A stretch of 32,000 bases of DNA from Gloeobacter kilaueensis JS1 (GCF_000484535.1 NC_022600.1:3990234-4022233), one strand, 5' to 3'. Shown: positions 2-20,028, counted from the first letter of the stretch. The notes: generated by a model from the sequence alone, not told the origin. Program-made: numbers and translations.

Positions 2-826
2 GTGCAACTGGCCCGCGCCGATTACGAGCGCGAGAGCGCTCTCTACAAAAAAGGGATCAGTGCGCAGCGCGAGCAGCAGGCGGCCTTGGCCAGGCTCGAC
101 GGCACCCTCTCAGAACTGGCGGCGGCAAAATCGACCGAGGCGGCGGCCCGTTCCAGCCTGCAGGCGGCCCGCGCGCGTTTGAACGCCCTGCGCCAGGCCA
201 CCGGCAGCAGCATCACCGACGAACTTGCCCTTAAAAGTCCGGTCAGCGGCATCGTCGTCTCCCGGATGATCCAGCCAGGCCAGGTGGTCAACCCGGCCAC
301 CGCCGGAACCAGCAACGCCGAGGACCATCTGTTTACGATTACAAGCCTCGCCGAAGTCTGGGCAATGCTCGAAGTGCCCCAATCGGAGGTGGCGGGCCTC
401 AAGCTCGGCGCGCCGGTGCAATTTACGAGCGAAGTCGCCCCCGGCGAAGCGTTCAAAGGCCGGATCATCCGGCTGGGTGAAACCTTCGATCCCCAGGCGC
501 GTACGGCCAGTGTCCGCGTCGCCATCGCCAACCCGCACGGTACTCTCAAGCCGGGAATGCTCGTGCTCGCCCAGGCGATCTCCGGCGGCAGTGCCCGGCC
601 AGTGCTGGCGGTGCCCACCGCCGCCATCCAGCAGATAGACGGCAAGGACGTGGTCTTTGTGCGCACCGCACCCCACCGCTACCGCCAGCAACCGGTGGTG
701 CTGGGCGAGCGCAACGCTCAGCTTACCCAGATCGTCTCCGGTCTTACGGCGGGTACCGAAGTGGTGAGCGACGGCTCCTTCGTCCTCAAATCGGAAGCCC
801 TCAAGGCCACCCTGGAGGGCGAGTAA
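2..826 (+). CDS. RND efflux periplasmic adaptor (membrane-fusion protein, HlyD/CzcB-like); 5' end cut by window edge
   Basis: The frame is open from the window start. An Ala/Gln/Arg-rich coiled-coil hairpin (AAKSTEAAARSSLQAARARLNALRQ) is followed by lipoyl/beta-barrel-type segments (LKSPVSGIVVSRMIQPGQVV, FKGRIIRLGETFDPQARTASVRVAIANP, LKPGMLVLAQ). The stop overlaps the pump ATG (TAATG at 824-828), which is typical adaptor-pump coupling. Confidence 0.85.
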   Translation: MQLARADYERESALYKKGISAQREQQAALARLDGTLSELAAAKSTEAAARSSLQAARARLNALRQATGSSITDELALKSPVSGIVVSRMIQPGQVVNPATAGTSNAEDHLFTITSLAEVWAMLEVPQSEVAGLKLGAPVQFTSEVAPGEAFKGRIIRLGETFDPQARTASVRVAIANPHGTLKPGMLVLAQAISGGSARPVLAVPTAAIQQIDGKDVVFVRTAPHRYRQQPVVLGERNAQLTQIVSGLTAGTEVVSDGSFVLKSEALKATLEGE

Positions 827-3800: not shown

Positions 3801-3975
3801 CGCCTCGCTGGGTTTCATTCCGATGGCTGTCGCCACCTCCGTCGGTGCCGAAGTGCAGCGCCCCCTCGCCACCGTCGTCATCGGCGGCCTGATCACCGCC
3901 ACCCTCCTCACCCTGCTGGTATTGCCCAGCCTCTACCCGGTGATCTGTGGCCGGCGCAGTTCGAAGCGAGCCTGA
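826..3975 (+). CDS. Heavy-metal-efflux type RND inner-membrane pump (CzcA/CusA family)
   Basis: The 1049-aa product has the RND layout of an N-terminal TM helix, a large periplasmic loop and TM bundles, repeated twice. Family-typical strings include VTVTTNARGLAPQETEQYITYPIE, GAIDFGILIDGSVVMVENI and VQRPLATVVIGGLITATLLTLLVLPSLY. It is coupled to the upstream adaptor. Metal specificity cannot be read from the sequence. Confidence 0.93.
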   Translation: MTRALDRENARLTQPPAPSGLLERLVIGALKFRVLVLAATLLAVLGGVYAFLNLRVDAVPDISNIQVTVTTNARGLAPQETEQYITYPIELALQGMPHLTRLRSISKYALSQVTAVFEDGTDIYWARQQVSERLKTAESAIPKSIDAQIALGPIATGLGEVYQFEVRGSGYSLMQLRDILDWQIIPALKSVPGVDEVEAMGGAAKEYQVWLEPEKLHGYHIMPTEVMRALENNNANAGGGYAVDNNNQVLLRGEALLRNVGDIGNVMVHRDAKGVVRVRDLGRVVEGKKLSQSIVTQNGEGETVIGIVLMRKGENSEQVVRRVQAKLDALAPTLPPNVRVVTFYNRGTLIDRTIDTVWHNLAVGALLVVVVLFVVLGNLRGGLIAALAIPIALLGAIAFLVITNTSGNLLSLGAIDFGILIDGSVVMVENILRRLSEAKPRDAAEQLAVVERASAEVARPIFFAVLIITVVYVPILFLTGVAGKTFQPMALTVVFGLLAALVIALFVTPALASLLLGEHPKEEETFLLRALRPIYTRALDWCLGRPWPTALVAVGLFAASLTLIPGLGTEFIPTLKEGSIVLTVDRPVSGSLSAAAAQTTLMEKVVRTFPDVETVVARSGHPEQAFDPMGPEETDFFIILKPQEQWTTARTQQEIEEAIAKKLDQEVPGAAIAFGQPIEQRMNELVSGAKGDVAIRIFGPDLDILRKLGLQIAGAVGRVAGASDVKVEQVAGLPVVSAQIKQAALSAYGVTAQDALDTISAAVDGKIVGTIFQGKPRYDLTVRFAPDALSRPEDLGTLPVAMSEGDLVPLSQVANIRRVESAAEIAHLEGDRNLTVQLNVNGRDLGGFVAAAQQAVRDKVALPAGYRLEWGGQFENLQEAESRLFILVPLSLALIFILLYASFGSLQPGILIFLNIPLALTGGLLALALRGMSLSVTAGVGFIALFGVAVLNGVVLVSTIRRIEAEQHLEPLEAARAGAELRLRPVLMTALVASLGFIPMAVATSVGAEVQRPLATVVIGGLITATLLTLLVLPSLYPVICGRRSSKRA

Positions 3976-3985
3976 AGTCAGCTAT
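3929..3985 (+). repeat. Direct-repeat copy A: the authentic 3' terminus of the RND pump CDS plus 10 nt downstream
   Basis: It shares a 22-nt perfect block (gcctctacccggtgatctgtgg) and an 18-nt perfect block (gagcctgaagtcagctat) with 7365-7420, in the same order and orientation. Confidence 0.7.
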
Positions 3986-4712
3986 GAATTGTTCCGTCGG
4001 GCAAAATCGTACCTGTTAGCTTCGCTTCTTCGGTGAGATTGCCATCCCATACCGCACCGGTCAAATCCGCTTCTCTTAGATCGGCGTAGCTGAAGTCGCA
4101 GGCAGTGAGGTTGGCTCGGCGCAAATTTGTGCGGTACAAGATAGCGCCCATCAAATCCGATCCACTCAAATCCGCTTCGCTGAGATTGGCTGATTCCAGA
4201 CGACATCCTCGCATATCCGACTGCCGTAACAGCGCCCGGTTGAAATTTGCACCACCGGCCAGTGTCTCCAGCAGACGCGCCCGATCAAGACAGGCTCCCT
4301 GCAAATCTGCTTCTCTTAAATCTGTATTGTCGAGATTTGCTTCGGTCAAATCCGCGCCAACAAGCAGGGCTCCCCGCAGATCGGCAGTGCCAAGATCCAT
4401 AAATCGCAACGAACGGTTCTGTTCTGGCTGGTTCACTATTTCCCAAACCAGATGCCAGCGGGCATCCATGCGCGTGTTTTCGTCGATGAGAACTCCACGG
4501 AGGTTGACAGCACCAAGATACGTCCTGGAAAGGTTGGTTCCGCGTAAATCAGCGCGGTCGATACGGGCACCACCAAGATTCGCATCGCTGAGATCCAGAC
4601 CGCGTAAATCCGGTGAATCCATCGACACATGGACTTGGTGCCAATACCCTTTCAGCCATCGTCCAATAGTGTATGCTTGCAGTAGTTCTTCTACAGTACG
4701 AATTGTTTTCAT
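3978..4712 (-). CDS. Pentapeptide-repeat protein
   Basis: The 244-aa product has long runs of the A(D/N)LXX pentapeptide pattern (ADLRGTNLSRTYLGAVNLRG; ADLTEANLDNTDLREADLQGACLDRARL; ANLSEADLSGSDLMGAILYRTNLRRANLTACDFSYADLREADLTGA). It has an ATG start and lies 23 nt downstream of the protease gene on the same strand. Confidence 0.9.
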   Translation of the reverse strand: MKTIRTVEELLQAYTIGRWLKGYWHQVHVSMDSPDLRGLDLSDANLGGARIDRADLRGTNLSRTYLGAVNLRGVLIDENTRMDARWHLVWEIVNQPEQNRSLRFMDLGTADLRGALLVGADLTEANLDNTDLREADLQGACLDRARLLETLAGGANFNRALLRQSDMRGCRLESANLSEADLSGSDLMGAILYRTNLRRANLTACDFSYADLREADLTGAVWDGNLTEEAKLTGTILPDGTIHS

Positions 4713-4735
4713 GCCAATAAGACTACGTAGGAAAT

Positions 4736-6022
4736 CTACAGTACATCTTTAAATTCAAGAATGATGTTGAGCAGCTTATTCCTCCTTTTTACAATTAGGT
4801 GTACTTTGTTGTTTGGCAGCTGTTGGAGTTTATCTACAATCTCTTTGTGCGTCAATTTTCCATACGGTACTCCATCAATATTTAGGATCTGATCCCCTGA
4901 GCGTATGTCAGCGTGCTCAGCTAATCCTTTTCTTTCAATAGCTGTTACTTTCCCACTAGAAATATCAACGCTCATGCCAACAGCAACATAGTGAAAAGCT
5001 TCACCAAAACGCACACTTTTTCGCAAGGCAATTTGTCTATGTCTTACATCGAATATCACAAAAAAACGAGAGAGTATATCATTACCTATAACGCCAGCCG
5101 TGTCAGTAACTTCCGTTGACTTACTCGATTTCGATATTAATCCTATCAGAGGCTTTATAATCTCAAATTGCCCCAGCTTAAGCGCTGTCGCCCGTACTCT
5201 GTAGAGAACGTCTGTACCTCCAAGACCCTCTGTAGAGTACTTTCTTATGTTGGGGTAGCGCCTGTAAAGGTTGTTTCTTTCGACAAATGGTTGGTACAAC
5301 GTTAATGAGGTTGAAGAGCCAGTATCTATATCGAACCGAGCTGAAATGCCATCAATTTTTCCTTCAATGGCTGGCATTCCTAGCGAACTAACGACAAAGG
5401 GGAAGACGACGTTCTCGCAGTTGGGAGCTACTTTTTGTGAGTTATTGAAGTAAGCCTTCAAATTAATATAATCAAGTTGAATAAGGAAATTTTGAAAGAA
5501 ATCTAATCCGAGAATAGCATCAATTTTTGAAAGTGCTGAAGAGTCAGGCATTACTGCCGAAGGAAGCACACGTAGAATAGTTTTACTCAACTTCAAGTTA
5601 CCAATCTCAAGATTTTCTACTGTTGTTTCTTGAGATGTTTGTACAGGAGAACTTCCATTGCTCCCAATAAACTCAGGACGCATGAGAGAGCGGGTCGGCA
5701 ATCTAAGTTTTTGCGCAACTCTTTCAGATATGAAGTTAATGGTGGCCCCTGAGTCAAGGATAAGATTAAACGGTCCCTGACCATTTATGTACGCATCGAA
5801 TGCAATGAGCCCAGGAGGAGGAGAAGAACGAAAAGGAACAACAATTTCAGACTCAATTTGCTTCGCCTGGTAACTGTCAGCTTTACAAGCCGTAGAGCTA
5901 TAGATTTCTGCAAGTGCAGGAGTCGTCAAAAATGGCAGAATGAAAACCGCTTTTAAAGCAGTCTGTAGAAGAACAGAAGCAGAGCTACTGCTCACAGTTG
6001 CTTTTATCTGTTCGTGCTCCAC
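4736..6022 (-). CDS. Secreted aspartic protease with two retropepsin-like lobes and a C-terminal PDZ domain
   Basis: The 428-aa product has a GTG start and a signal-peptide-like N-terminus (KAVFILPFLTTPALA|E). Two aspartic-protease catalytic motifs lie in separate halves (LILDSGATINFIS near residue 88, FDIDTGSSTSLTL near residue 232). The C-terminus is PDZ-like (RSGDQILNIDGVPYGKLTHKEIVDKLQ). It has low G+C and A/T-ending codons. Confidence 0.8.
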   Translation of the reverse strand: MEHEQIKATVSSSSASVLLQTALKAVFILPFLTTPALAEIYSSTACKADSYQAKQIESEIVVPFRSSPPPGLIAFDAYINGQGPFNLILDSGATINFISERVAQKLRLPTRSLMRPEFIGSNGSSPVQTSQETTVENLEIGNLKLSKTILRVLPSAVMPDSSALSKIDAILGLDFFQNFLIQLDYINLKAYFNNSQKVAPNCENVVFPFVVSSLGMPAIEGKIDGISARFDIDTGSSTSLTLYQPFVERNNLYRRYPNIRKYSTEGLGGTDVLYRVRATALKLGQFEIIKPLIGLISKSSKSTEVTDTAGVIGNDILSRFFVIFDVRHRQIALRKSVRFGEAFHYVAVGMSVDISSGKVTAIERKGLAEHADIRSGDQILNIDGVPYGKLTHKEIVDKLQQLPNNKVHLIVKRRNKLLNIILEFKDVL

Positions 6023-7247
6023 CCCACGAGTTGAAGACTCCGCCAGAAAATTCTGGACTACCGTCTTTATCGACTCCAGCCGAAATACTCACTGTAGTCT
6101 TTCCACCGGGATGACTCTGGCATGTATCGACATTCACATGCGCGCCATCTTTGTTGATTTTAGTTTTAATATCCGTATATCCACCATCCACCTCTGGGTT
6201 GCTTGTACCAGTATTAGCAGGAGTAGTGGGTTTGGAAATAGGGCCACCTAAATCACCGGCTTTAGTGCTGAGCTTGTTTCCAACGCCTGTATCGTTGCCC
6301 GCTAGCAGAGTTGGGGTAGAGCCATTCTGTGTATCTGCCTTCTCTGGTAAACCTGTATAGGTCTCGCTGGAAGCAGTAACAAAGTTGCTTACTCCTGAAG
6401 GCATTCCATCGCAACCTTCAGCTATACCTGCTCTATTGTCAGCCGCAGTAGGATAGCTGACTTCTCCAGTTCTGACTTTGTCCTGATTGACTATTTGCAA
6501 GTTGAAATTCTCAAAGCCGTTGTCTAGGCCATATTCAAAACCGTTACTGTAGTAGCCTTGCTCGCCTGCAGCAACGAGCAGTGCGGGATCAACCGGCAGG
6601 CTCTGCTCGCCTTGAGAAACATTCCACTCGTCCCAACTATTATCCGGCAAGTCAAAGCCTGTATCGTTGCTGTCGTTGTCTACCTGTCCGTAATTGCCGA
6701 TCTCCTGCTCCCGGAGCGAGCCATAGGACTCCTCACCACTTAAGGCAGACTCTCCGTCAGCATCCTCGTACTGGTTGTAGCTGCTGGAAAAACTCGCGAA
6801 TCCTGTGTTTTGTTCTTCATCAAACGGATTAAAGCCGTATGCATCTTGCTGCTGGCTATACCCATAATTGTCAGCACTCTCGAAGTCTGTTTCTGGCTGC
6901 TGGTCAGAGGGGAAGTTGATGTTGTCCCAAATATCGCTATTGGGAAAGCCGAGGGCAGCATTGCCTATGAAAGCGCCCTGCTCACCGTACTGTGTATCTG
7001 TAGAGAAGTCGTAGTCAGTACCGTCACTTTCTAAGTACTGTTGCCCATAGCTGTTGTTGTCATCCACAAGATAGGACTGCTCGCCATCGCCAGCCTCTGT
7101 GTGCCCTTCCTCGTCAGTGCCGTTGCCAGACTCTGAATACTCTTGTTCGTCGCCTTCGCTTGCCGAATACTCTCGCTCGTTTTCGTTCCCGAAGCCATCG
7201 CCGGCAAAATTCTGCTGTTGTTCGCCAAAAAGGTTTTCCTCGTCCAT
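5985..7247 (-). CDS. Hyper-acidic low-complexity protein of unknown function, with no recognisable family
   Basis: The 420-aa ORF has an ATG start preceded by an AGGTG SD-like motif 5 nt upstream. It is the only long ORF in this interval and is co-directional with the protease, which it overlaps by 38 nt. By my count, residues 1-256 contain about 60 D/E but only 2 Arg and no Lys. They are rich in N/Q/G/S with interspersed Y/F/W. No signal peptide is apparent. Confidence 0.65.
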   Translation of the reverse strand: MDEENLFGEQQQNFAGDGFGNENEREYSASEGDEQEYSESGNGTDEEGHTEAGDGEQSYLVDDNNSYGQQYLESDGTDYDFSTDTQYGEQGAFIGNAALGFPNSDIWDNINFPSDQQPETDFESADNYGYSQQQDAYGFNPFDEEQNTGFASFSSSYNQYEDADGESALSGEESYGSLREQEIGNYGQVDNDSNDTGFDLPDNSWDEWNVSQGEQSLPVDPALLVAAGEQGYYSNGFEYGLDNGFENFNLQIVNQDKVRTGEVSYPTAADNRAGIAEGCDGMPSGVSNFVTASSETYTGLPEKADTQNGSTPTLLAGNDTGVGNKLSTKAGDLGGPISKPTTPANTGTSNPEVDGGYTDIKTKINKDGAHVNVDTCQSHPGGKTTVSISAGVDKDGSPEFSGGVFNSWGGARTDKSNCEQ

Positions 7248-7364
7248 GACGCACCTGCAGAAAGGGGTTGCTTCTGTGCAATGTAAGCCATTAATTTGGA
7301 GTCGTCAAGAACTATTCGGGGGAAATACAGTGTCTGGGGCAACCTGCTCAAGTTCGTTTTCGAT

Positions 7365-7420
7365 GCCTCTACCCGGTGATCTGTGGGCAGCGCGAGAAAA
7401 GAGAGCCTGAAGTCAGCTAT
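7365..7420 (+). repeat. Direct-repeat copy B: displaced, out-of-frame duplicate of the RND pump 3' terminus
   Basis: It has the same 22-nt and 18-nt perfect blocks as 3929-3985. They are separated by 16 nt here versus 17 nt in copy A, and that spacer sequence has diverged. No pump coding sequence lies upstream of it. Confidence 0.7.
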
Positions 7421-7553
7421 AGACCTCTTGCATGCATGTCCAGGAGCGGTGTCCGACGATGTGGTGGGCAAAACCTTTGTAAGAGCAAGTCGAGACGATG
7501 AATTTCTCGAACCGAGAAGTTAAACTTCCAAACAGTTGATCGAACAGTATGCG

Positions 7554-8126
7554 ATGATGCTAACTCCGCGAGTTCTCGAACAAGCCCTGGAAATTCTTGG
7601 AGAGTTACTTGCTGAGCGTGGGTCACCCTATGGGCTTGCTGTCATCGGGGGTGGAGGACTGGCTTTATTGGGACTGATAGACCGCGCTACGCGAGACATC
7701 GACGTGGTTGCCCGCGTAGAAGGTGCAGGGTACATCTCGGCTGAGCCCCTGCCGCCTGTGCTCAAAGAAGCGGTTGAGCAAACGGCTCTGCTGCTCGATC
7801 TGGATCGTAGCTGGCTGAATGGAGCCCCAACGGACCTCCTGCGGTTTGGCCTGCCCCAAGGTTTTCGAGAAAGAGCGCTGGTACGCCGATACAGTGCGCT
7901 GACCCTGCAACTTGCTAGTCGCTACGACCAGATTCACTTCAAATTATTCGCAGCGGTGGATCAAGGAGCAAAGAGTAAACACTTCGCGGATCTCAAGCGA
8001 CTACAGCCATCGACGGAGGAGTTGCTGGCAGCCGCTCGCTGGTGTCTGATTCAGGCCGGTGGGATCGAGGGTGATCTGCGTGCGGCTCTAAGCGCACTGG
8101 GGGTACCGGGCGATGTCGAGCTTTAG
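7554..8126 (+). CDS. Minimal nucleotidyltransferase-fold protein (pol-beta superfamily; AbiEii/DUF6036-like)
   Basis: The N-terminal motif hGGGGLALLGLIDRATRDIDVV matches the G-[GS]...D-x-D signature of pol-beta-fold NTases. A downstream helical part (DQIHFKLFAAVDQGAKSKHFADLKRL) resembles the second half of AbiEii-type proteins. The ORF opens at TTG 7536, and the first ATGs are at 7554 and 7557, so the start is uncertain. The 3' end overlaps the next gene by 14 nt. Confidence 0.7.
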   Translation: MMLTPRVLEQALEILGELLAERGSPYGLAVIGGGGLALLGLIDRATRDIDVVARVEGAGYISAEPLPPVLKEAVEQTALLLDLDRSWLNGAPTDLLRFGLPQGFRERALVRRYSALTLQLASRYDQIHFKLFAAVDQGAKSKHFADLKRLQPSTEELLAAARWCLIQAGGIEGDLRAALSALGVPGDVEL

Positions 8127-9081
8127 AGAACAGTTGTCGGAGTACACTTTGCTGCTGCTCTGGAGTTTGTGGACAGAGTTAGGAGTAGCTGGGCTTCATC
8201 GATACCACACCGATTGCCTGGTTGATCCGGAAGCACTGGTCCTGCTCACTGGCTGGCTGGGCCAGTCAGATCCGAGGTTGCAGGAGGAAGTGTTTTCCGA
8301 TTGGTGCCGCCGCTACGGAAATCTCCTGTCACTACAGCGCGTTTATGGCCTGGCAAAATCTTTTGATTATTTAGATCTCAAAGACTCATTTGATTTGATT
8401 GCGCAATCGCTGGATAAGAAACCTCCCAGGCATCTAACTCAGCAGATGCACAGTGGTTCCAGCGGAAAGTCCCGGCTACCATCCTTGACTCAGCCTTCGC
8501 TACTGTTGCTGCGCCTGGCAGCTATTTTTGGGGTTGGCAACCGGACCGTAACGATTGCCGCTTTACTGGCTGAACCGAATGGTCTGAGCGCGTCGGATAT
8601 TGCTTTTATCTGCGGTTATAGCAAGCGCAATGTGGCGAATACGCTGGAAGCGCTGCACCTGGGAGGCTTGCTTCACAAACTAGAAGTCAAAAACAGGCTC
8701 CAATACCATCTGACCAAGTCCAAGCAACTGCTGAGCCTGATTGGTCCACTGCCTGAGAACATGACCGGCTGGCTCTTTGTATTCAGTTTTATAGCGCTCT
8801 GGACCCACTATTCCCAGCAGAACGACGGAGCTTCCACGCTGAGGCGGGCAGTATCTGCCGTGAAATTGATGAAGGGGATGCATTCTGTTCTTACCCTGAT
8901 CGGCTGTTCGCCGCCGATCCTGGAAGGCGAGCCAGAGAAAGATCTGGAGCAAATCGAGGTGTGGGTTCTACGGACAAATGCTGAAATTGCAAAGGGTACC
9001 TCGGTTCTACTGAAACACTCCTTTCTGTTGCCGCCCCTAACTGCGGACTTCTTTATAAGAGACATTCAACCTTCACGGTAA
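8113..9081 (+). CDS. Winged-helix (ArsR/MarR-like wHTH) domain protein of unknown function, partner of the NTase
   Basis: The 322-aa product has an ATG start lying inside the end of the upstream gene. A central wHTH-like segment is present (TVTIAALLAEPNGLSASDIAFICGYSKRNVANTLEALHLGGLLHKLEVKNRLQYHLT). The N-terminal ~130 aa and C-terminal ~110 aa are unrecognised. Confidence 0.6.
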   Translation: MSSFREQLSEYTLLLLWSLWTELGVAGLHRYHTDCLVDPEALVLLTGWLGQSDPRLQEEVFSDWCRRYGNLLSLQRVYGLAKSFDYLDLKDSFDLIAQSLDKKPPRHLTQQMHSGSSGKSRLPSLTQPSLLLLRLAAIFGVGNRTVTIAALLAEPNGLSASDIAFICGYSKRNVANTLEALHLGGLLHKLEVKNRLQYHLTKSKQLLSLIGPLPENMTGWLFVFSFIALWTHYSQQNDGASTLRRAVSAVKLMKGMHSVLTLIGCSPPILEGEPEKDLEQIEVWVLRTNAEIAKGTSVLLKHSFLLPPLTADFFIRDIQPSR

Positions 9082-9207
9082 GAGAGTGTTTGCAAGCCAG
9101 ATTCTAAGCAGACGAAGGCGATTAAACGTCAGCTCCAAGCAGCCCTATGTCCCTTGCAGCAGAAGAAAAATAAGACGAGTCTGCAACTGACTCCACCCAT
9201 CCCGCCT

Positions 9208-9320
9208 GCAGCCCAGTTACAGTGAACCCCCCCTCTTCTCCTCTGCCCGGCGGGGCAGCCCCCCATTCGGGGGGCAGGAGGAGGAGAGCGGGGGGCAGGG
9301 GGGGTGTGGAGGGGTGGGGA
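9208..9320 (+). repeat. GC-rich palindromic intergenic repeat, copy 1
   Basis: It shares the leader gcagcccagttac(a/g)gtgaacccccc with 19771-19862. It also shares polypyrimidine and polypurine arms (ctcttctcctctgccc ... gggcaggaggaggagag) able to form a long hairpin. This copy carries an extra inner hairpin (gcccccc-attc-ggggggc). It lies between convergent gene ends. Confidence 0.75.
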
Positions 9321-9464
9321 CCGTTTTAGCAAGCACCCAAAACCGCAAGCAACACGAGCGCCGAAGCGGATCAAGCTGCTCACACTTCAGCGTCTAATTA
9401 GACAAAGGAGGATGACAGGCAGCTGCTCAGAAGGCTGGCAAAAACATGATGTAAAAACACCCTC

Positions 9465-10253
9465 TCAGCCAGGTTCAAGGGTGATGTCCATCTGATAGAA
9501 CTTGAAGGTATTCTCCTCGCTCGGTTGGTCGCAGGCCACCAGACGATAGCGATCGAGCACGTCGGCTATAAAATCTGGCTTCTCGTGCTCCGGCAGACAC
9601 CATGTCCAGGCAACGAAGGTGACCTGACCGAAGGCGAAGAATGCCTCGCGGGAACCGAAATCCCAGGCTTTGTCCGCCGTGCGCAGGTGCAGGATTTTCA
9701 GGCCGTTTTGCTCGGCTCTGGCTGCATACTGCTCCGGTGTCAGGTGCAGATAAGGATCGCGGAAATCTTGAAAGGAGGTGGACCAGCGGGGCGATTGTCG
9801 CGTCTGCTCAAGCACGTCTTCGAGGCTCGGGCGCTCGCCTTTGGGGACGAGGCGGAGTTGGGCCCGGCCATGGGGACGCAGGGCAGTGTGAATGGAATGT
9901 AAAGCAGCATCCTGCTCGGGTATCCAGTGGAGGGCGTTGAAGGAGACGATGAGATCGAATTCGCTCTTGAAGGGCAGGTGGCGGGCATCGGCCACCTCAA
10001 AGCGCAGCCGGGGCCAGTCGGCGGGGGCAAAGTGTGACGAGGCGAAGCTAATCATCTGCTCGGAGCTATCGATGCCCAAGACCGCTCCTGCAGGAACGCG
10101 CTCAGCGATCTGCGCGGTAATCTTGCCGTTGCCGCAGCCGATATCGAGCACTTGCTCTGTACCGTCGAGTTTCAGCAAAGCCAGCACCTCGTCGGCCATC
10201 GCGCGCTGCAGTGCCGATATCTGGGTGTACTGGGCGGCGTTCCATTCGACCAC
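9465..10253 (-). CDS. Class I SAM-dependent methyltransferase (trans-aconitate methyltransferase/Tam-like)
   Basis: The 262-aa product has a GTG start with AAGGAG 6 nt upstream. The N-terminal W-N-x-x-x-Y segment and SAM motif I (VLDIGCGNGKIT) are followed by GIDSSEQMI and FDLIVSFNALHWIP, as in Tam-type enzymes. Confidence 0.85.
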   Translation of the reverse strand: MVEWNAAQYTQISALQRAMADEVLALLKLDGTEQVLDIGCGNGKITAQIAERVPAGAVLGIDSSEQMISFASSHFAPADWPRLRFEVADARHLPFKSEFDLIVSFNALHWIPEQDAALHSIHTALRPHGRAQLRLVPKGERPSLEDVLEQTRQSPRWSTSFQDFRDPYLHLTPEQYAARAEQNGLKILHLRTADKAWDFGSREAFFAFGQVTFVAWTWCLPEHEKPDFIADVLDRYRLVACDQPSEENTFKFYQMDITLEPG

Positions 10254-10510: not shown

Positions 10511-11065
10511 TTATGGTAAAAACAGAGCACGAAAGTTATTAATAGTGGCATGATCCATCTTTTCAAAAGGCAGCACCCTGCTGGCTGGAGGCCGGTCCAG
10601 AGGCAGAATATCCATAGCCGATAAGATACCGAAATAGGCATTCATTCTCATGTGCGGCTCTTCTTCAGCGTTCATGACCGTCTCATACAGAGTTTTCGCC
10701 ATCTCGTATCTGAGGTCAGGTTCGATAACATCCGGCAGCACCTCTCCCAGGCCGACCAGTGCAATGCCGCGCACCATCATATCCGGATCGTTGATAGCAA
10801 GTTCCAGACCAGCCCGCGCGTATTCCGCGAATCTAAATCTTGTCAGAAGCGCTCCGACCGCATTCCACCGCACCATAACATCGGTTGAATCGAGCGTAGT
10901 GGCGATTACAGGCGCAGTGGAAAACGCGGCGCAATCGGTTGCTACGGTTATGGCTGTAAAGGGATCGGGGCCAGCGATGAGCAACTTTAGAAATGCTGTA
11001 GAAGCACGAGAGATCCGGCCATTTCGCTCATATTCGTCGTATATGTCCTCGAAGTTCATGTGCAT
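10511..11065 (-). CDS. HEAT/PBS-lyase-like repeat protein of unknown function
   Basis: The 184-aa product has three degenerate D-x-x-x-(V/M)R-x-x-A-x-x-x-L-type repeats (STDVMVRWNAVGALL; NDPDMMVRGIALVGLG; EEEPHMRMNAYFGILS). Its G+C is lower than that of the neighbouring pur genes. Confidence 0.6.
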   Translation of the reverse strand: MHMNFEDIYDEYERNGRISRASTAFLKLLIAGPDPFTAITVATDCAAFSTAPVIATTLDSTDVMVRWNAVGALLTRFRFAEYARAGLELAINDPDMMVRGIALVGLGEVLPDVIEPDLRYEMAKTLYETVMNAEEEPHMRMNAYFGILSAMDILPLDRPPASRVLPFEKMDHATINNFRALFLP

Positions 11066-11125: not shown

Positions 11126-12565
11126 TCAGGTTGCAACCGGCTGCTGTTCGAGCATGAGCTTGGTACGGCGGATGCGGTCGGGAATGGCGATCGGATAGTT
11201 GCCGGTAAAGCAGGCGGTGCAGAAGTTGTTGCCGCTGGTGCCGGTGGCTTCGAGCATTCCGTCGATGCTCAAGTAGGCGAGGCTATCGACGCCGATATGG
11301 CGGGCAATTTCTTCGACGCTCTTGGTGGCGGCAATCAGCTGATCTTGCGAGTCGGTGTCGATGCCGTAAAAGCAGGGATGGGTGACGGGCGGCGAGGAGA
11401 TGCGCATGTGAACTTCGGCGGCTCCACTGTCGCGCAGAGCCTGGACGATCTTGCGGCTGGTGGTGCCGCGCACGATCGAATCATCGACCATGACGACGCG
11501 CTTGCCCTCGATCACGTCGGGTAGAGGATTGAGCTTCATCTTGATGCCCGCCTCGCGCATCGATTGGGTGGGCTGGATGAAGGTGCGACCGACGTAGTGG
11601 TTTTTGATCAGCCCCTGCTGAAAAGGAATGCCCAGGCGGCGGGCAAAGCCGATGGCTGCCGGGGTGCCGGAGTCGGGAATCGGGATGACGATATCGGCTT
11701 CTACAGGTGATTCGGCGGCGAGAATTTCGCCCAGGCGCTCGCGGTAGGTATAGAGGCTCTCGGCGTTCATCCGCGAGTCGGGCCGGGCAAAGTAGATCAT
11801 CTCGAAGATGCACAGTTTGGGATCGGGGGTGGCCCAGCGGTGGGAAGTGAGGCCCGCCTCGGTGATTTCGACCAGCTCTCCCGGTTCGACGTCGCGCTCG
11901 TACCTGGCACCGATGATGCTCAGGGCACAGGTTTCGCTCGCAAGCACGTAGCGGCCATCGAGCCTGCCGATGACCAAGGGACGGACGCCGTTCGGATCGC
12001 GGGTGCCCAACAGGGCTCCGGGAACACCGATGACCAGGCTGAAAGCGCCGCTGCAGCGCTTGAGGGCGCGAATCGTGCCAGAAATCCAGTCATCGCCGTC
12101 ATCGACCGCCTCGCCGATCGCGTGGACGATCTCCTCGGAGTCGGTGGTGGCAAGCAGGGTGTGTTCGCGGGCGAGCAACTCCTCGCGCAATTGATCGGCG
12201 TTGACCAGATTGCCGTTGTGGGCGAGGACCACCGATCCCAGGCGCGTGCGGGAGACCACAGGCTGGGCGTTGACCTGGCGGCTGGAGCCGGTAGTCGAGT
12301 AGCGGGTGTGGCCGACGGCGAGCTGGCCCTGCAACTGCTCCAGCAACTTTTCGCCAAAGACCTGGGAGACCAGCCCCATCTCTTTATGGAGGGTGTGCTT
12401 TTCGCCATTGAGCACAGCGATTCCGGCAGATTCCTGGCCGCGATGCTGGAGGGCAAATAACCCGAAGTAGGTCAGCTTGGCGACATCCTCGCCGGGGGCG
12501 AGGATACCGAAGACGCCGCAAGCCTCCTCGGGTTTGTCGGCGGCGAAGGATGATGCGCTGGTCAT
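11126..12565 (-). CDS. purF: Amidophosphoribosyltransferase
   Basis: A short propeptide precedes the N-terminal nucleophile Cys ([15 protein letters not shown]|CGVFGI). Also present are the Ntn glutaminase domain, the PRTase motif [14 protein letters not shown] and C-terminal Cys ligands ([12 protein letters not shown]). The start was chosen at the internal ATG at 12565. This ATG overlaps the purL stop (ATGA). The longer ORF extending to 12991 runs inside purL. Confidence 0.95.
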
Positions 12566-14907
12566 TGTGGCGGTGCCTCGGTGACAGGTGTGTAGGCCAT
12601 GCGGCGCGGGATCGCTTGCTCCCAGGTTGTCTGCAGTTGGGAGGAGGGGGTCTGGATGGCGATATTGGTGCCTTGCAGGGCAACGGCAAAGTCTGCCGCT
12701 GCGACGGTGCCCAGAAACTGCCAGTGGGAGCCCAGGGCAGCGGCGAACCATTCTTCGCAGGCGGTCCGATGGGCCGGATCGACGCTCACGACGATCGCCG
12801 CCGCCCTCTCGCCAAAAAGCACTACGTCCGGACGATGGCCCGCAGCGTCCAGGATGGTGGCCTCCAGGCCAAGATTGCCCGCAATGCAGCATTCGGCCAG
12901 CGCAACGGCGAGCCCGCCCTCCGACAGGTCGTGGGCCGACTTGAACAGACCGCGCTCGATGCCCGCCCGACAGACAGACTGGACCTGGCATTCGAGGGCG
13001 AGGGGCAACAGCGGCGGTGAACCGGCTACCAGGCCATGCGCCCGGTAGAGGTACTCGGAGCCACCCAACGTCGGTGGCCCGCCACCCAGCAGATATACCA
13101 GATCTCCTGCGGCCTTGAAGCCCTGGGAGCAGACGCGGCGAACGTCCTCGACAAGGCCCACCATGCCGATCGTGGGCGTCGGGTAAATCGCCTGCACGCT
13201 GCCGTCGCGGGTGGTCTCGTTGTAGAGCGAGACGTTGCCGCCGGTGACAGGCGTCTTGAAGGCCCGGCAGGCGTCGGCGATGCCCCGGCAGGCCATCGCG
13301 AGCTGCCAGTAATTGTCGGGCTTTTCGGGAGAACCAAAGTTGAGGTTGTCGGTGACAGCGAGCGGTTCTGCGCCCACACAGCTCAGGTTGCGCGCCGCCT
13401 CGGCGACGGCGAGCATCGCCCCCCGGTAGGGATCGAGCCAGACGTAGCGGCTGTTGCAGTCGATTGTGGCGGCGATACCCCGCTCACCGGCAGGCACAGC
13501 CGTCACCTCGCCGACGCCAAAAGTCTGGGGGCGTACCCGGATCACCGCCGCGTCGGCAGCCCCCGGTACGATCGCGGTGTTGTTCTGCACCTGATGGTCG
13601 TACTGGCGGTAGACCCAGCGCTTGGAGGCGATGTTGGGACTGTCGAGCAACTGCAGCAGCGCCGCTGTGTAATCGGCAGGCAGCGGCAGCGTGCTCCCGT
13701 CGAACGCCTGCAATTCGCGCAGCCAGAGGGGCGGCTCGGAGAGCACCTCGCGCTCGTAGAGGGGCGCGTCGTCGGTGAGGGCACCGGCAGGCAGCTCGGC
13801 CACCACCTCGCCCCGGTGGCGGATACGGACGATCGGATCGGCCACTACCTCGCCCACGACGACCGCGTGCAGCCCCCAGCGCTCAAAAAGGGCAATCAGC
13901 TCTCCTTCGCGGCCCTTGTGGGCGACAAAGAGCATCCGCTCCTGCGATTCGGAGAGCAAAAATTCGTAGGGGACCATGCCCGTCTCGCGCACGGGCACCC
14001 GGTCGAGGTCCAGGTCGATGCCGACGCCGCCCTTGGCGGCCATCTCCGAGGAGGAGCAGGTGAGGCCCGCTGCGCCCATGTCCTGGGCAGCGACCACCGC
14101 CCCGGTGCGAAAGGCTTCGAGGCACGCCTCGATAAGCGACTTTTCGGTGAACGGATCGCCCACCTGCACGGCGGGTCGGTCCTTTTGCGACTCCTCAGAA
14201 AGTTCTGCCGAGGCGAAACTGGCCCCGCCCATGCCGTCGCGCCCGGTGGTCGAGCCGACGTAGAGCACCGGGTTGCCGATCCCTGCCGCGCCGGAGCGGA
14301 CAATCTCGGGGGTTTCGAGGACGCCGATGGCCATCGCGTTGACCAGCGGATTGCCGGAGTAGGTCTCATCGAAGTAGACCTCGCCCCCCACGGTGGGAAT
14401 GCCGGTGCAGTTGCCGTAGTGGCCGATGCCCTGGACGACGCCATTAAAAAGCGCCCGGTTCCGGGCGTCTTCGAGCGGTCCAAAGCGCAGCGAATTGAGG
14501 ACAGCGATCGGGCGCGCCCCCATCGTAAAGATGTCGCGCAGAATGCCCCCGACGCCGGTGGCTGCCCCCTGGAAAGGCTCGACCGCACTCGGGTGGTTGT
14601 GGGATTCGACTTTGAAGGCCACGCGCAACCCGTCGCCCACATCGATGACGCCAGCATTTTCGCCGGGGCCGACCAGCACTCTTGGGCCAGTGGTCGGAAA
14701 ACCTTTAAGCAGGGCTCGGGAATTTTTGTAACAGCAGTGCTCCGACCACATGACGCTGAACATGCCCAACTCGTTGAGGTTGGGGTGGCGTCCGATGAGG
14801 TCGGTGATGCGCCGGTATTCTTGAGCACTCAGGCGGTGACGGGCCAGATCGGCAGGACTAAATGGCGAAGATTCGGTCGGCGCAATCATCTCGGCCAGAC
14901 AATACAC
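12562..14907 (-). CDS. purL: Phosphoribosylformylglycinamidine synthase subunit PurL
   Basis: Hallmark strings are present ([50 protein letters not shown]), along with the duplicated PurM-like AIR-synthase fold. The start is either GTG 14907 or ATG 14889. Confidence 0.95.
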
Positions 14908-14934
14908 CTGCCGATTATAACCTCCACACCCCCC

Positions 14935-15783
14935 CTACTTGCCGGTCTTTTTGACCGTGTTGGCGGTGGGGGTAAAGTTCGAGTAGCGGGCCAACTGCTC
15001 CAGCGACTGCTCACCCATATAGCGCTGACCGGCGATGTCCCAGGTGGGGAAGCTCTCGATACTCGCATCGGCGCAGGCTTTGGTCAGGCCCGAGCCCGGC
15101 TGGCCGTTGGGAGAACATTCGACGTAGGGCACAAAGCGCAGCGCCTCCGGGCCGAAGAACGATTTTTGGGCCTTGCAGTGCGGGCACCAGGAAGCGCCGT
15201 AAAATTTGGCACCGCTGGCGCGCAGGTGCTTGGCCAGAGCAACGGAATAATCGACCGGCCCGGCGGCGGCACTCTGGACGTTGTAGATGCCGTAGATCGC
15301 TGCCATGCCCACCAGCACGATGCCGAGGCCACCCAGCACGAGATTGTCCGGCTTTTGCCAGCGGTGACCGACGAGTGTGAGCACAAAGATTGCCGTCATC
15401 GTCAGCGCCGAGGCGATGCAATAAAGGCAGACCGCCACGATCTCGAAGGCGAGCAGATAGACAAGGTAAGCCGTAAAAGTCACCCCGCCCAGGGAGAGGG
15501 CAAACAGTGCCCCCCAGCGCCAGCGGTCGATGCCCGGCACCAGGGCGATAAGCAGCAAAGCCAGGTAGAGCGCCAGACCAAAGCTCGACAGCGGCAGACC
15601 AAAAAGCGAAGCGTAGGGCGTCTGCAAGACCAGATCGCAGCCCGCCCCCTGGGTGCAGAAGGCTGTCTGCGCCGCCGTCAGCTTTGTCCAACTCAGATAC
15701 GCCGTCAGAGCGCTACCAAAAGCGGCGAGAGCCGCGATCGTCCAGCGCGGCCAGCTCGCTTCCTGCAGGGAGGAGACCTTCAT
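14935..15783 (-). CDS. Vitamin K epoxide reductase homolog fused to a thioredoxin-like domain
   Basis: An N-terminal multi-TM VKOR domain carries a loop Cys pair (FCTQGAGCDLV) and a membrane CXXC (VCLYCI). A C-terminal Trx-like domain carries WCPHC. The start is ATG with GAGG upstream. This architecture is characteristic of cyanobacterial VKOR-Trx fusions. Confidence 0.9.
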   Translation of the reverse strand: MKVSSLQEASWPRWTIAALAAFGSALTAYLSWTKLTAAQTAFCTQGAGCDLVLQTPYASLFGLPLSSFGLALYLALLLIALVPGIDRWRWGALFALSLGGVTFTAYLVYLLAFEIVAVCLYCIASALTMTAIFVLTLVGHRWQKPDNLVLGGLGIVLVGMAAIYGIYNVQSAAAGPVDYSVALAKHLRASGAKFYGASWCPHCKAQKSFFGPEALRFVPYVECSPNGQPGSGLTKACADASIESFPTWDIAGQRYMGEQSLEQLARYSNFTPTANTVKKTGK

Positions 15784-19687: not shown

Positions 19688-19725
19688 CTGTTTCAACTTC
19701 CCAGCCCCTGTCTCCAGTGGGAAGA
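19688..19725 (+). repeat. Short hairpin repeat, copy 1
   Basis: The sequence is ctgtttcaaCTTCCCAgcc-cctgtct-ccagTGGGAAGa. A 7-bp inverted repeat (CTTCCCA/TGGGAAG) is present. The 19-nt left arm is identical to 19973-19991. Confidence 0.6.
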
Positions 19726-19770
19726 AGTGAGCGCAAGACAAGCCTGAAACTGACTTCACCTGGCCCATTG

Positions 19771-19862
19771 GCAGCCCAGTTACGGTGAACCCCCCTCCTT
19801 TCTCCTCGCCCCGGCGGGGGCAGGAGAGAGGAGGGGGGCAGGGGGGTGGAGAGAGGTGGGGG
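19771..19862 (+). repeat. GC-rich palindromic intergenic repeat, copy 2
   Basis: It has the same leader as 9208-9320. Its arms cccctcctttctcctcgcccc / ggggcaggagagaggagggg form a hairpin of about 20 bp with one indel and one mismatch. Confidence 0.75.
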
Positions 19863-19972
19863 AAATGCTCACCTGATCCTCCCAACTATTTACCGATCAA
19901 CTTCGCACTCAAAACCGCGCAAGTATTGAGTGCATTGGTATCAAATATCGGCTCAAAGTAGCCGGGAAAAGT

Positions 19973-20028
19973 CTGTTTCAACTTCCCAGCCAGCGACTTT
20001 GTGTTTTCCCTCACCCCCAGTGGGGAGA
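19973..20028 (+). repeat. Short hairpin repeat, copy 2 (expanded loop)
   Basis: It has the identical 19-nt left arm ctgtttcaacttcccagcc and the related right arm ccagtggggaga. These are separated by 25 nt here versus 7 nt in copy 1. Confidence 0.6.

Follow-up and report, generated by a model that had tools for sequence, protein, structure and literature searches.

Genomic islands and integrative elements located at the 3′ ends of tRNA or housekeeping genes are flanked by direct repeats. Here we describe a structure of similar outline in the chromosome of the cyanobacterium Gloeobacter kilaueensis JS1 (CP003587; 4,724,791 bp). It lies in a stretch of 32,000 nucleotides (GCF_000484535.1 NC_022600.1:3990234-4022233), which we call the window and whose first letter is position 1. 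In this window, the 3′ terminus of a gene for a CusA/CzcA-family heavy-metal RND efflux permease (hereafter, the pump) occurs twice, once at the end of the pump gene (copy A) and once 3.4 kb downstream (copy B). The interval between the copies holds genes for a pentapeptide-repeat protein, a retropepsin-like aspartyl protease and a protein of no known family, which we call open reading frame 420 (ORF420; Table 1). As in genomic islands, direct repeats of tens of bases stand at both junctions, one of them is the intact end of the target gene, and the cargo is atypical. Unlike such islands, the JS1 block carries no integrase, mobility genes or tRNA, no recombinase was found within or adjoining it, and the atypical composition exceeds the repeats.

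A closely similar layout has been described for e14 (and phage 21) in icd of Escherichia coli K-12, where integration has left the C-terminal pseudogene icdC (PMC13626634, citing Hill et al. 1989). In both cases an element occupies the 3′ end of a protein-coding gene, the gene remains intact, the far junction carries a short orphan piece of its C-terminal end, and the changes that set the two tails apart are few and for the most part conservative or synonymous (PMC13626634). The elements themselves are not alike. The 15-kb prophage e14 encodes an integrase of its own and has been shown to excise, whereas the JS1 insert is 3.4 kb long, has no recombinase or phage genes and leaves an orphan tail of 56 nt.

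Displaced 3′ ends are also found in rhs loci and in the effector-immunity arrays of the Vibrio cholerae type VI secretion system (T6SS), and have been attributed to homology-facilitated illegitimate recombination (PMC5361080). There, an upstream gene serves as the homologous anchor, a new 3′ end comes in together with its cargo, and the old end is orphaned downstream, all without an integrase (PMC5361080). The same topology (a conserved gene, a new 3′ end with cargo and a downstream orphan) can be recognized in JS1, and the mosaic identity of the two pump tails, described below, fits it. In contrast to the multi-orphan arrays, immunity genes and population data with intermediates that are available for rhs and T6SS loci, JS1 offers a single 56-nt orphan, one strain, and a gene that encodes a transporter and not a polymorphic toxin. 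The topology has been familiar for a long time through e14/icd and the displaced ends of toxin genes, and the proposed JS1 scar is another example of a known scar type, in a poorly sampled lineage.

Copy A consists of the last 15 pump codons (LYPVICGRRSSKRA, followed by the stop), the stop codon and 10 nt beyond; its final 8 nt belong at the same time to the convergent pentapeptide gene, where they form the stop and the codons before it. Copy B is a direct repeat of it, of about 56 nt. The two share a perfect 22-nt block (GCCTCTACCCGGTGATCTGTGG, at 3929 and 7365) and a perfect 18-nt block (GAGCCTGAAGTCAGCTAT, at 3968 and 7403); the spacer between the blocks measures 17 nt in copy A and, owing to a 1-nt indel, 16 nt in copy B. 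Each block has exactly 2 sites in the 32 kb with up to 3 mismatches allowed, as compared with shuffle expectations of 0.00 and 0.01. The repeat had been reported in a first-pass annotation made from the sequence, and its coordinates, both blocks and both spacer lengths proved exact. Its likeness also withstood comparison with shuffled controls: the local alignment of A and B scored 41, versus 16.5±1.8 (maximum 23) for shuffled queries against the rest of the window. The edges of the repeat are sharp, as the 40 or 100 nt on either side of A and B align no better than shuffles.

The identity between the copies is uneven. All 40 positions of the blocks match, compared with 9 of 17 in the centre (Fisher p=1.5e-5). 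Thus, the description of the spacer as diverged was right insofar as the two versions differ strongly, but they are not unrelated: with the 1-nt indel taken into account, A and B end in the same four codons (K R A stop), and two of the differences, read in the frame of the pump, are synonymous (GGC/GGG, CGA/AGA). Perfect blocks around a diverged centre in which some changes are synonymous argue for two separately evolved tails, and not for the decay of one duplicate. The closest pump orthologues (78–80% amino acid identity) differ from the 22-nt block at 6–8 of its 22 positions, so the identity of this block in A and B indicates that both tails come from the same narrow lineage and are not old paralogues. 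Judged by these patterns, the copies look as if they share very recent ancestry in the blocks and have a centre that evolved independently under coding constraint.

No pump homology was found to the left of 7365 in any reading frame, by translation or by flank alignment, which bears out the first-pass statement that copy B is attached to no pump body. The pump gene itself is intact and host-like in composition (GC content at third codon positions, GC3, 0.83), and its product is 100% identical to WP_023175344 (AGY60025) of the same strain. Copy B has the appearance of a pump tail that was coding at one time and has evolved separately; this would be consistent with an insertion that displaced one terminus. 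Read straight in the pump frame, it gives CGQREKRE..., and the tails of relatives read CG[KN]KEKS and C-REKP; this likeness is a weak hint that copy B may be the displaced original. Both copies are reproduced in independent Logan assemblies of the same strain (L083, L084), in which a 7,296-bp contig spans them at 99.95–99.99% identity. This means that the repeat is no assembly artefact.

As had been noted, all three genes between the copies lie on the opposite strand, and the interval is A+T-richer: GC content is 0.40–0.44 between 4.6 and 6.0 kb, and the 60 nt at 5461-5520 contain exactly 14 G+C. GC3 inside the interval is uneven, with 0.50 in the pentapeptide gene, 0.36 in the protease gene (overall GC 0.41) and 0.50 in ORF420. 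An index similar to the codon adaptation index (CAI-like) is 0.375 for the pentapeptide gene. Taken together, the enclosed genes have GC3 of 0.36–0.50 and CAI-like values of 0.30–0.43, versus 0.72–0.83 and 0.58–0.72 in host-like genes. Besides being atypical in codon usage, none of the three has a close homologue outside the JS1 genome. The best homologues of the pentapeptide protein are 38–45% identical and matched through the repeats.

The interval is tightly packed. The pentapeptide gene begins 23 nt after the protease stop, and on the strength of this spacing the two are probably co-transcribed; the end of ORF420 overlaps the start of the protease gene by 38 nt, and the noncoding DNA between ORF420 and copy B measures no more than 117 nt. 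Such packing leaves no room for a decayed recombinase gene, and nothing points to one. The absence of an integrase, transposase or tRNA inside the interval was confirmed and holds for the entire window: no integrase, transposase or phage families were found in any of its ORFs (Pfam, NCBIfam, PHROGs, PADLOC), and no tRNA, tmRNA or Rfam families either. No sign was found that homologues of the insert genes travel with integrases elsewhere, a point to be checked according to the first-pass annotation. ORF420 has none outside JS1, and the remote relatives of the protease (at about 30% identity or less) belong to a conserved operon of type II secretion system (T2SS) and VWA genes in the chromosome or lie on unrelated metagenome contigs.

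ORF420 and the protease gene form a two-gene module, ORF420 first, that is present in 3 copies in the JS1 genome (M1–M3, Table 1); M1 is the one in the window. Beyond the two JS1 paralogues, other homologues of the protease reach about 30% identity or less, and those in JGI metagenomes (33% at most) come without an ORF420-like partner. Among 1.84 billion cluster representatives, ORF420 had one match, the gene just upstream of the M2 protease AGY59963. No Pfam, NCBIfam, PHROG or PADLOC model matched ORF420, which carries a conserved Cys-containing C-terminal domain; IMG/VR yielded no relatives of it, of the protease or of the flanking ORF322. A predicted sigma-70-type promoter (TTGACG, 17 nt, TACATT) lies at 7308-7280, and promoter and 5′ leader are conserved in 3/3 copies. 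Position 7326 is the outer limit of homology between the copies, and the linker that follows has no likeness to the pump or to M2 and M3. The pentapeptide gene is missing from M2 and M3.

In M3, the protease gene is preceded by an ORF420-like remnant with in-frame stops. The ORF420-like genes at L087 6741-7824 and L081 9543-9735 both show an in-frame TAG 22–32 codons past the conserved MDE... start, which could be decay or could mark a short leader ORF. The L081 copy has shrunk to about 190 nt and has kept its ...NNCEK C-terminus.

Weighing the sequence features of the repeat and its surroundings, we consider it probable that DNA was inserted into the 3′ end of the pump gene and displaced one terminus. 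Specifically, the very end of the pump gene would have received a 3.4-kb block that consists of the pentapeptide gene and, under a promoter of its own, the operon of ORF420 and the protease gene. This incoming DNA would have brought along a separate version of the last ~56 bases of the pump, and recombination of that version with the chromosomal tail would have created the working copy A on the pump and the orphan copy B past the insert. The route might have been a single crossover that took up a circular or circularised fragment; alternatively, homology in the pump may have served as the anchor, and the joint at 7364/7365 may have been illegitimate. One homologous and one non-homologous joint are what is meant by homology-facilitated illegitimate recombination.

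As for the mechanism, recombination between two diverged pump tails by the host's homologous recombination is our preferred candidate, to which we give somewhat less than an even chance; the host machinery is somewhat more likely to have acted than a dedicated integrase in trans. The lack of mobility genes and the atypical DNA downstream fit host recombination, and the downstream atypicality further suggests successive displacement. What the sequence shows is the repeat with its sharp edges and mosaic identity, a copy B without a pump body beside it, atypical codon usage in the enclosed genes and a lack of recombinase genes; that DNA was inserted at all is an inference, and the same holds for any statement on its direction, the original tail and the enzyme. 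In its present form the block is no autonomous mobile element, and nothing indicates continued mobility.

Several observations weigh against an insertion delimited by the two pump tails. Deviations in GC3, CAI-like values and tetranucleotide usage extend from 3978 to about 11100, i.e., 3.7 kb past copy B, so atypical composition is not confined between the repeats. The contrast with GC3-rich flanks, which the first-pass annotation had asserted, therefore holds on the left, at the pump, and fails on the right, where GC3 is 0.55 (7536-8126), 0.57 (8113-9081) and 0.54 (10511-11065, HEAT) and CAI-like values of the atypical genes (nucleotidyltransferase-like, ORF322 and HEAT) are 0.40–0.43. Within the right flank up to about 11100, the methyltransferase alone is host-like. 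Since the atypical stretch of about 7 kb runs from the pump to purF, copy B lies inside atypical DNA and not at its border.

The module raises a related difficulty. All three proteases have a GC content of 0.41–0.43 and GC3 of 0.36–0.38 next to neighbours with GC3 of 0.72–0.83, so low GC alone neither dates nor delimits the event at the pump. Neither M2 nor M3 has flanking direct repeats or an adjoining pump, which makes the duplicated pump tail peculiar to the M1 locus. The AT-richness may thus be a property of the gene family and not a sign of this insertion: either the three related copies came in from some AT-rich source not seen so far, or the family maintains its AT-rich codon usage. In other organisms, the GC content of more distant relatives of the protease is host-like. 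It should also be stressed that two perfect blocks around a half-diverged centre are unlike simple allelic divergence and are not predicted by it.

Comparison with other genomes has not revealed an empty site or an alternative arrangement, and the collections searched contain no close relative. The 90% cluster of the pump has 1 member, and the next relative is 78% identical. A protein query with the pump C-terminus against genome contigs recovered only orthologues of at most 80% identity, without downstream synteny; orthologues elsewhere are followed by wholly different genes (NicO and CobW in the closest one, L131). All read-set assemblies that were found belong to the same strain (at least 99.9% identity).

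The same geometry would be expected if copies A and B were true attL and attR sites of a site-specific element whose attP mimics the pump 3′ end, the tyrosine or serine recombinase having acted in trans or having been lost later. Direct repeats at a gene's 3′ end with two sharp edges, a homology that ends 10 nt past the stop (a typical attP/attB extent), a pump left intact, cargo of atypical composition and the layout of the e14 icd/icdC precedent (PMC13626634) all agree with this, and the perfect blocks could be recombinase-constrained sequence. It is nevertheless rather unlikely in our view, given that no ORF in the window encodes a recombinase domain, that the insert has no space for a pseudogene of one and that atypical DNA continues past copy B. 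Moreover, no inverted binding sites around a short overlap were seen in the blocks on visual inspection, no third copy of the repeat rises above the null in the window, and the bipartite unit, searched for as an exact DNA pattern, is absent from JGI metagenomes, as is its 18-mer from IMG/VR. Thus, the first-pass proposal of a scar left by an element that integrates into 3′ ends is upheld by the topology, the sharp edges and the atypical genes, and is weakened by the missing recombinase and by a composition that exceeds copy B. Site-specific integration and homology-anchored recombination would produce the same structure and cannot be told apart here. It would be a considerable step further, and an improbable one, to see in the 3.4-kb block a new class of integrase-less Gloeobacter cassettes that mimic the 3′ ends of host genes, are moved by a recombinase encoded elsewhere and carry the module as cargo; this notion draws on a module unmatched outside the genome, its 3 copies, a GC-poor protease each time in a GC-rich genome and the conserved promoter.

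Other readings dispense with a captured pump tail. Copy B might be the last remnant of a recent tandem or segmental pump duplicate whose body was deleted or overwritten by the three genes. Pump paralogues do exist in the genome (P0009, 72%; P0043, 63%), and same-strain assemblies break inside the pump at 1883, indicating an exact shared stretch elsewhere. The tails of the known paralogues differ, though, the 40/40 identity of the blocks rules out an old paralogue, and no pump homology, in DNA or protein, precedes copy B, which also speaks against the tail of a decayed pump paralogue that the first-pass annotation had listed as a possible outcome. A duplication would have to be followed by a precise deletion that left exactly the segment whose right end is also the end of homology, and we find this improbable. 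We attach similarly little credence to a local 56-nt target duplication made at insertion (of the long target-site type or by template switching) and altered by one clustered spacer mutation. It would account for a direct repeat that flanks the insert immediately and for blocks as perfect as if the copies had been identical at birth, but 8 substitutions and an indel in 17 nt, with none in 40 nt, are hard to obtain by ordinary decay, and two of the spacer changes are synonymous in the pump frame. Besides, the window contains no sequence from which either spacer could have been templated, neither a transposase nor terminal inverted repeats were found, and the pentapeptide ORF crosses the right edge of copy A, so that this edge is no simple insert boundary. 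Very improbable, finally, is the reading that the repeat is no scar but a functional sequence kept twice, for instance as a small RNA, a regulatory site or a terminator. Two blocks are perfectly kept even though copy B is non-coding, and copy A spans two convergent stop codons, a place for a bidirectional terminator; yet the folding energies of A and B on both strands stay within the shuffled distribution (z −1.2 to +1.4), their structures differ, a terminator scan found no terminator-like site inside either copy, Rfam gave no match, and nothing similar lies upstream of the other two module copies.

Three further candidates were rejected. A transposon or insertion sequence with a target-site duplication is at odds with a repeat that is 56 nt long and imperfect, and neither a transposase nor inverted repeats at the interval ends were reported. 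An integron gene cassette was dismissed given that A and B fold no better than shuffles and no integrase was found. A prophage of the e14/phage 21 type would call for phage genes between the tails. There are none, and the sole PHROG matches, to the pentapeptide protein, are repeat-driven.

Table 1. Features of the pump locus and the module copies in G. kilaueensis JS1; positions refer to the window unless a contig is named.
Feature	Position	Strand	Evidence or remark
CusB/HlyD-type membrane-fusion gene	2-826		directly upstream of the pump gene
CusA/CzcA-family heavy-metal RND efflux permease (pump), 1049 aa	826-3975	+	Pfam ACR_tran E=5.8e-281; NCBIfam TIGR00914 1073 bits
Copy A	3929-3985	+	pump 3′ end
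Pentapeptide-repeat protein, 244 aa	3978-4712	-	Pfam Pentapeptide E=1.8e-39
Retropepsin-like aspartyl protease with C-terminal PDZ domain, 428 aa	4736-6022	-	Pfam Asp_protease_2 E=1.6e-20, PDZ_6
ORF420, 420 aa	5985-7247	-	acidic, low-complexity, no known family
Module promoter and leader	7248-7326	-	promoter scan and alignments of module copies
Unique linker, 38 nt, module edge to copy B	7327-7364		alignments
Copy B, orphan pump tail without pump body	7365-7420	+	intergenic, between module promoter and next gene
Small nucleotidyltransferase-like ORF	7536-8126	+	weak DUF6036/AbiEii match
ORF322, 322 aa	8113-9081	+	central winged-helix-like region, weak match
S-adenosylmethionine (SAM) methyltransferase	9465-10253	-	
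HEAT-repeat protein	10511-11065	-	
purF	11126-12565	-	479 aa in gene calls on same-strain contig L088
purL	12562-14907	-	4-nt overlap with purF
Module copy M1	4736-7326		
Module copy M2	L087 6655-9172		protease AGY59963, 37% identical; ~60 genes upstream of the window
Module copy M3	L081 9455-10992		protease AGY56285, 51% identical

Downstream of copy B, the nucleotidyltransferase-like ORF and ORF322 overlap by 14 nt (8113-8126) and are atypical in codon usage. Together they have the look of a toxin-antitoxin or defence pair, although none of the models in PADLOC and NCBIfam matched them. Pfam, NCBIfam, PADLOC and PDB sequence searches gave no support for a recombinase hidden in either ORF. 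Further on, a mechanically called ORF of 621 aa (11126-12991) is an over-extended purF.

The window also contains other repeats. A dispersed repeat of about 150–200 nt with a G/C-rich palindromic core (CCCCCC...GGGGGG) occurs at 9120-9345 and 19688-19865, with a partial inverted match at 14921-14948 and another occurrence at L082 1-42. Same-strain Logan assemblies break at 9178, so this element must be multi-copy in the genome. It has no Rfam match and may be a MITE- or REP-like element (miniature inverted-repeat transposable element or repetitive extragenic palindrome). Its second copy is bracketed by a perfect 19-nt direct repeat (CTGTTTCAACTTCCCAGCC) at 19688-19706 and 19973-19991, which adjoins the start of a transketolase-like ORF, just upstream or inside, and appears to be a partial duplication of the left end of the element. 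Inside the pump gene, two independent Logan assemblies end a contig at 1883 (~1853-1913). This points to an exact repeat of ~31 nt or more elsewhere in the genome, whose partner is most likely the 72%-identical paralogue P0009, with RTIDTVWHNLAEG where the pump has RTIDTVWHNLAVG.

The module is the more unusual by-product of this analysis, with a protease whose GC3 is near 0.37 in a genome where GC3 is near 0.8. It also serves as a warning that low GC alone is no proof of recent insertion at a given site. If the proposed insertion is true, the locus would record a small, datable gene gain in one of the deepest-branching cyanobacteria and would show that new genes can be added at the end of a transporter gene that looks essential while this gene stays intact. 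For annotation, this would mean that the orphan tail should not be taken for a gene fragment of independent origin and that the pentapeptide, protease and ORF420 genes may be treated as one acquired operon.

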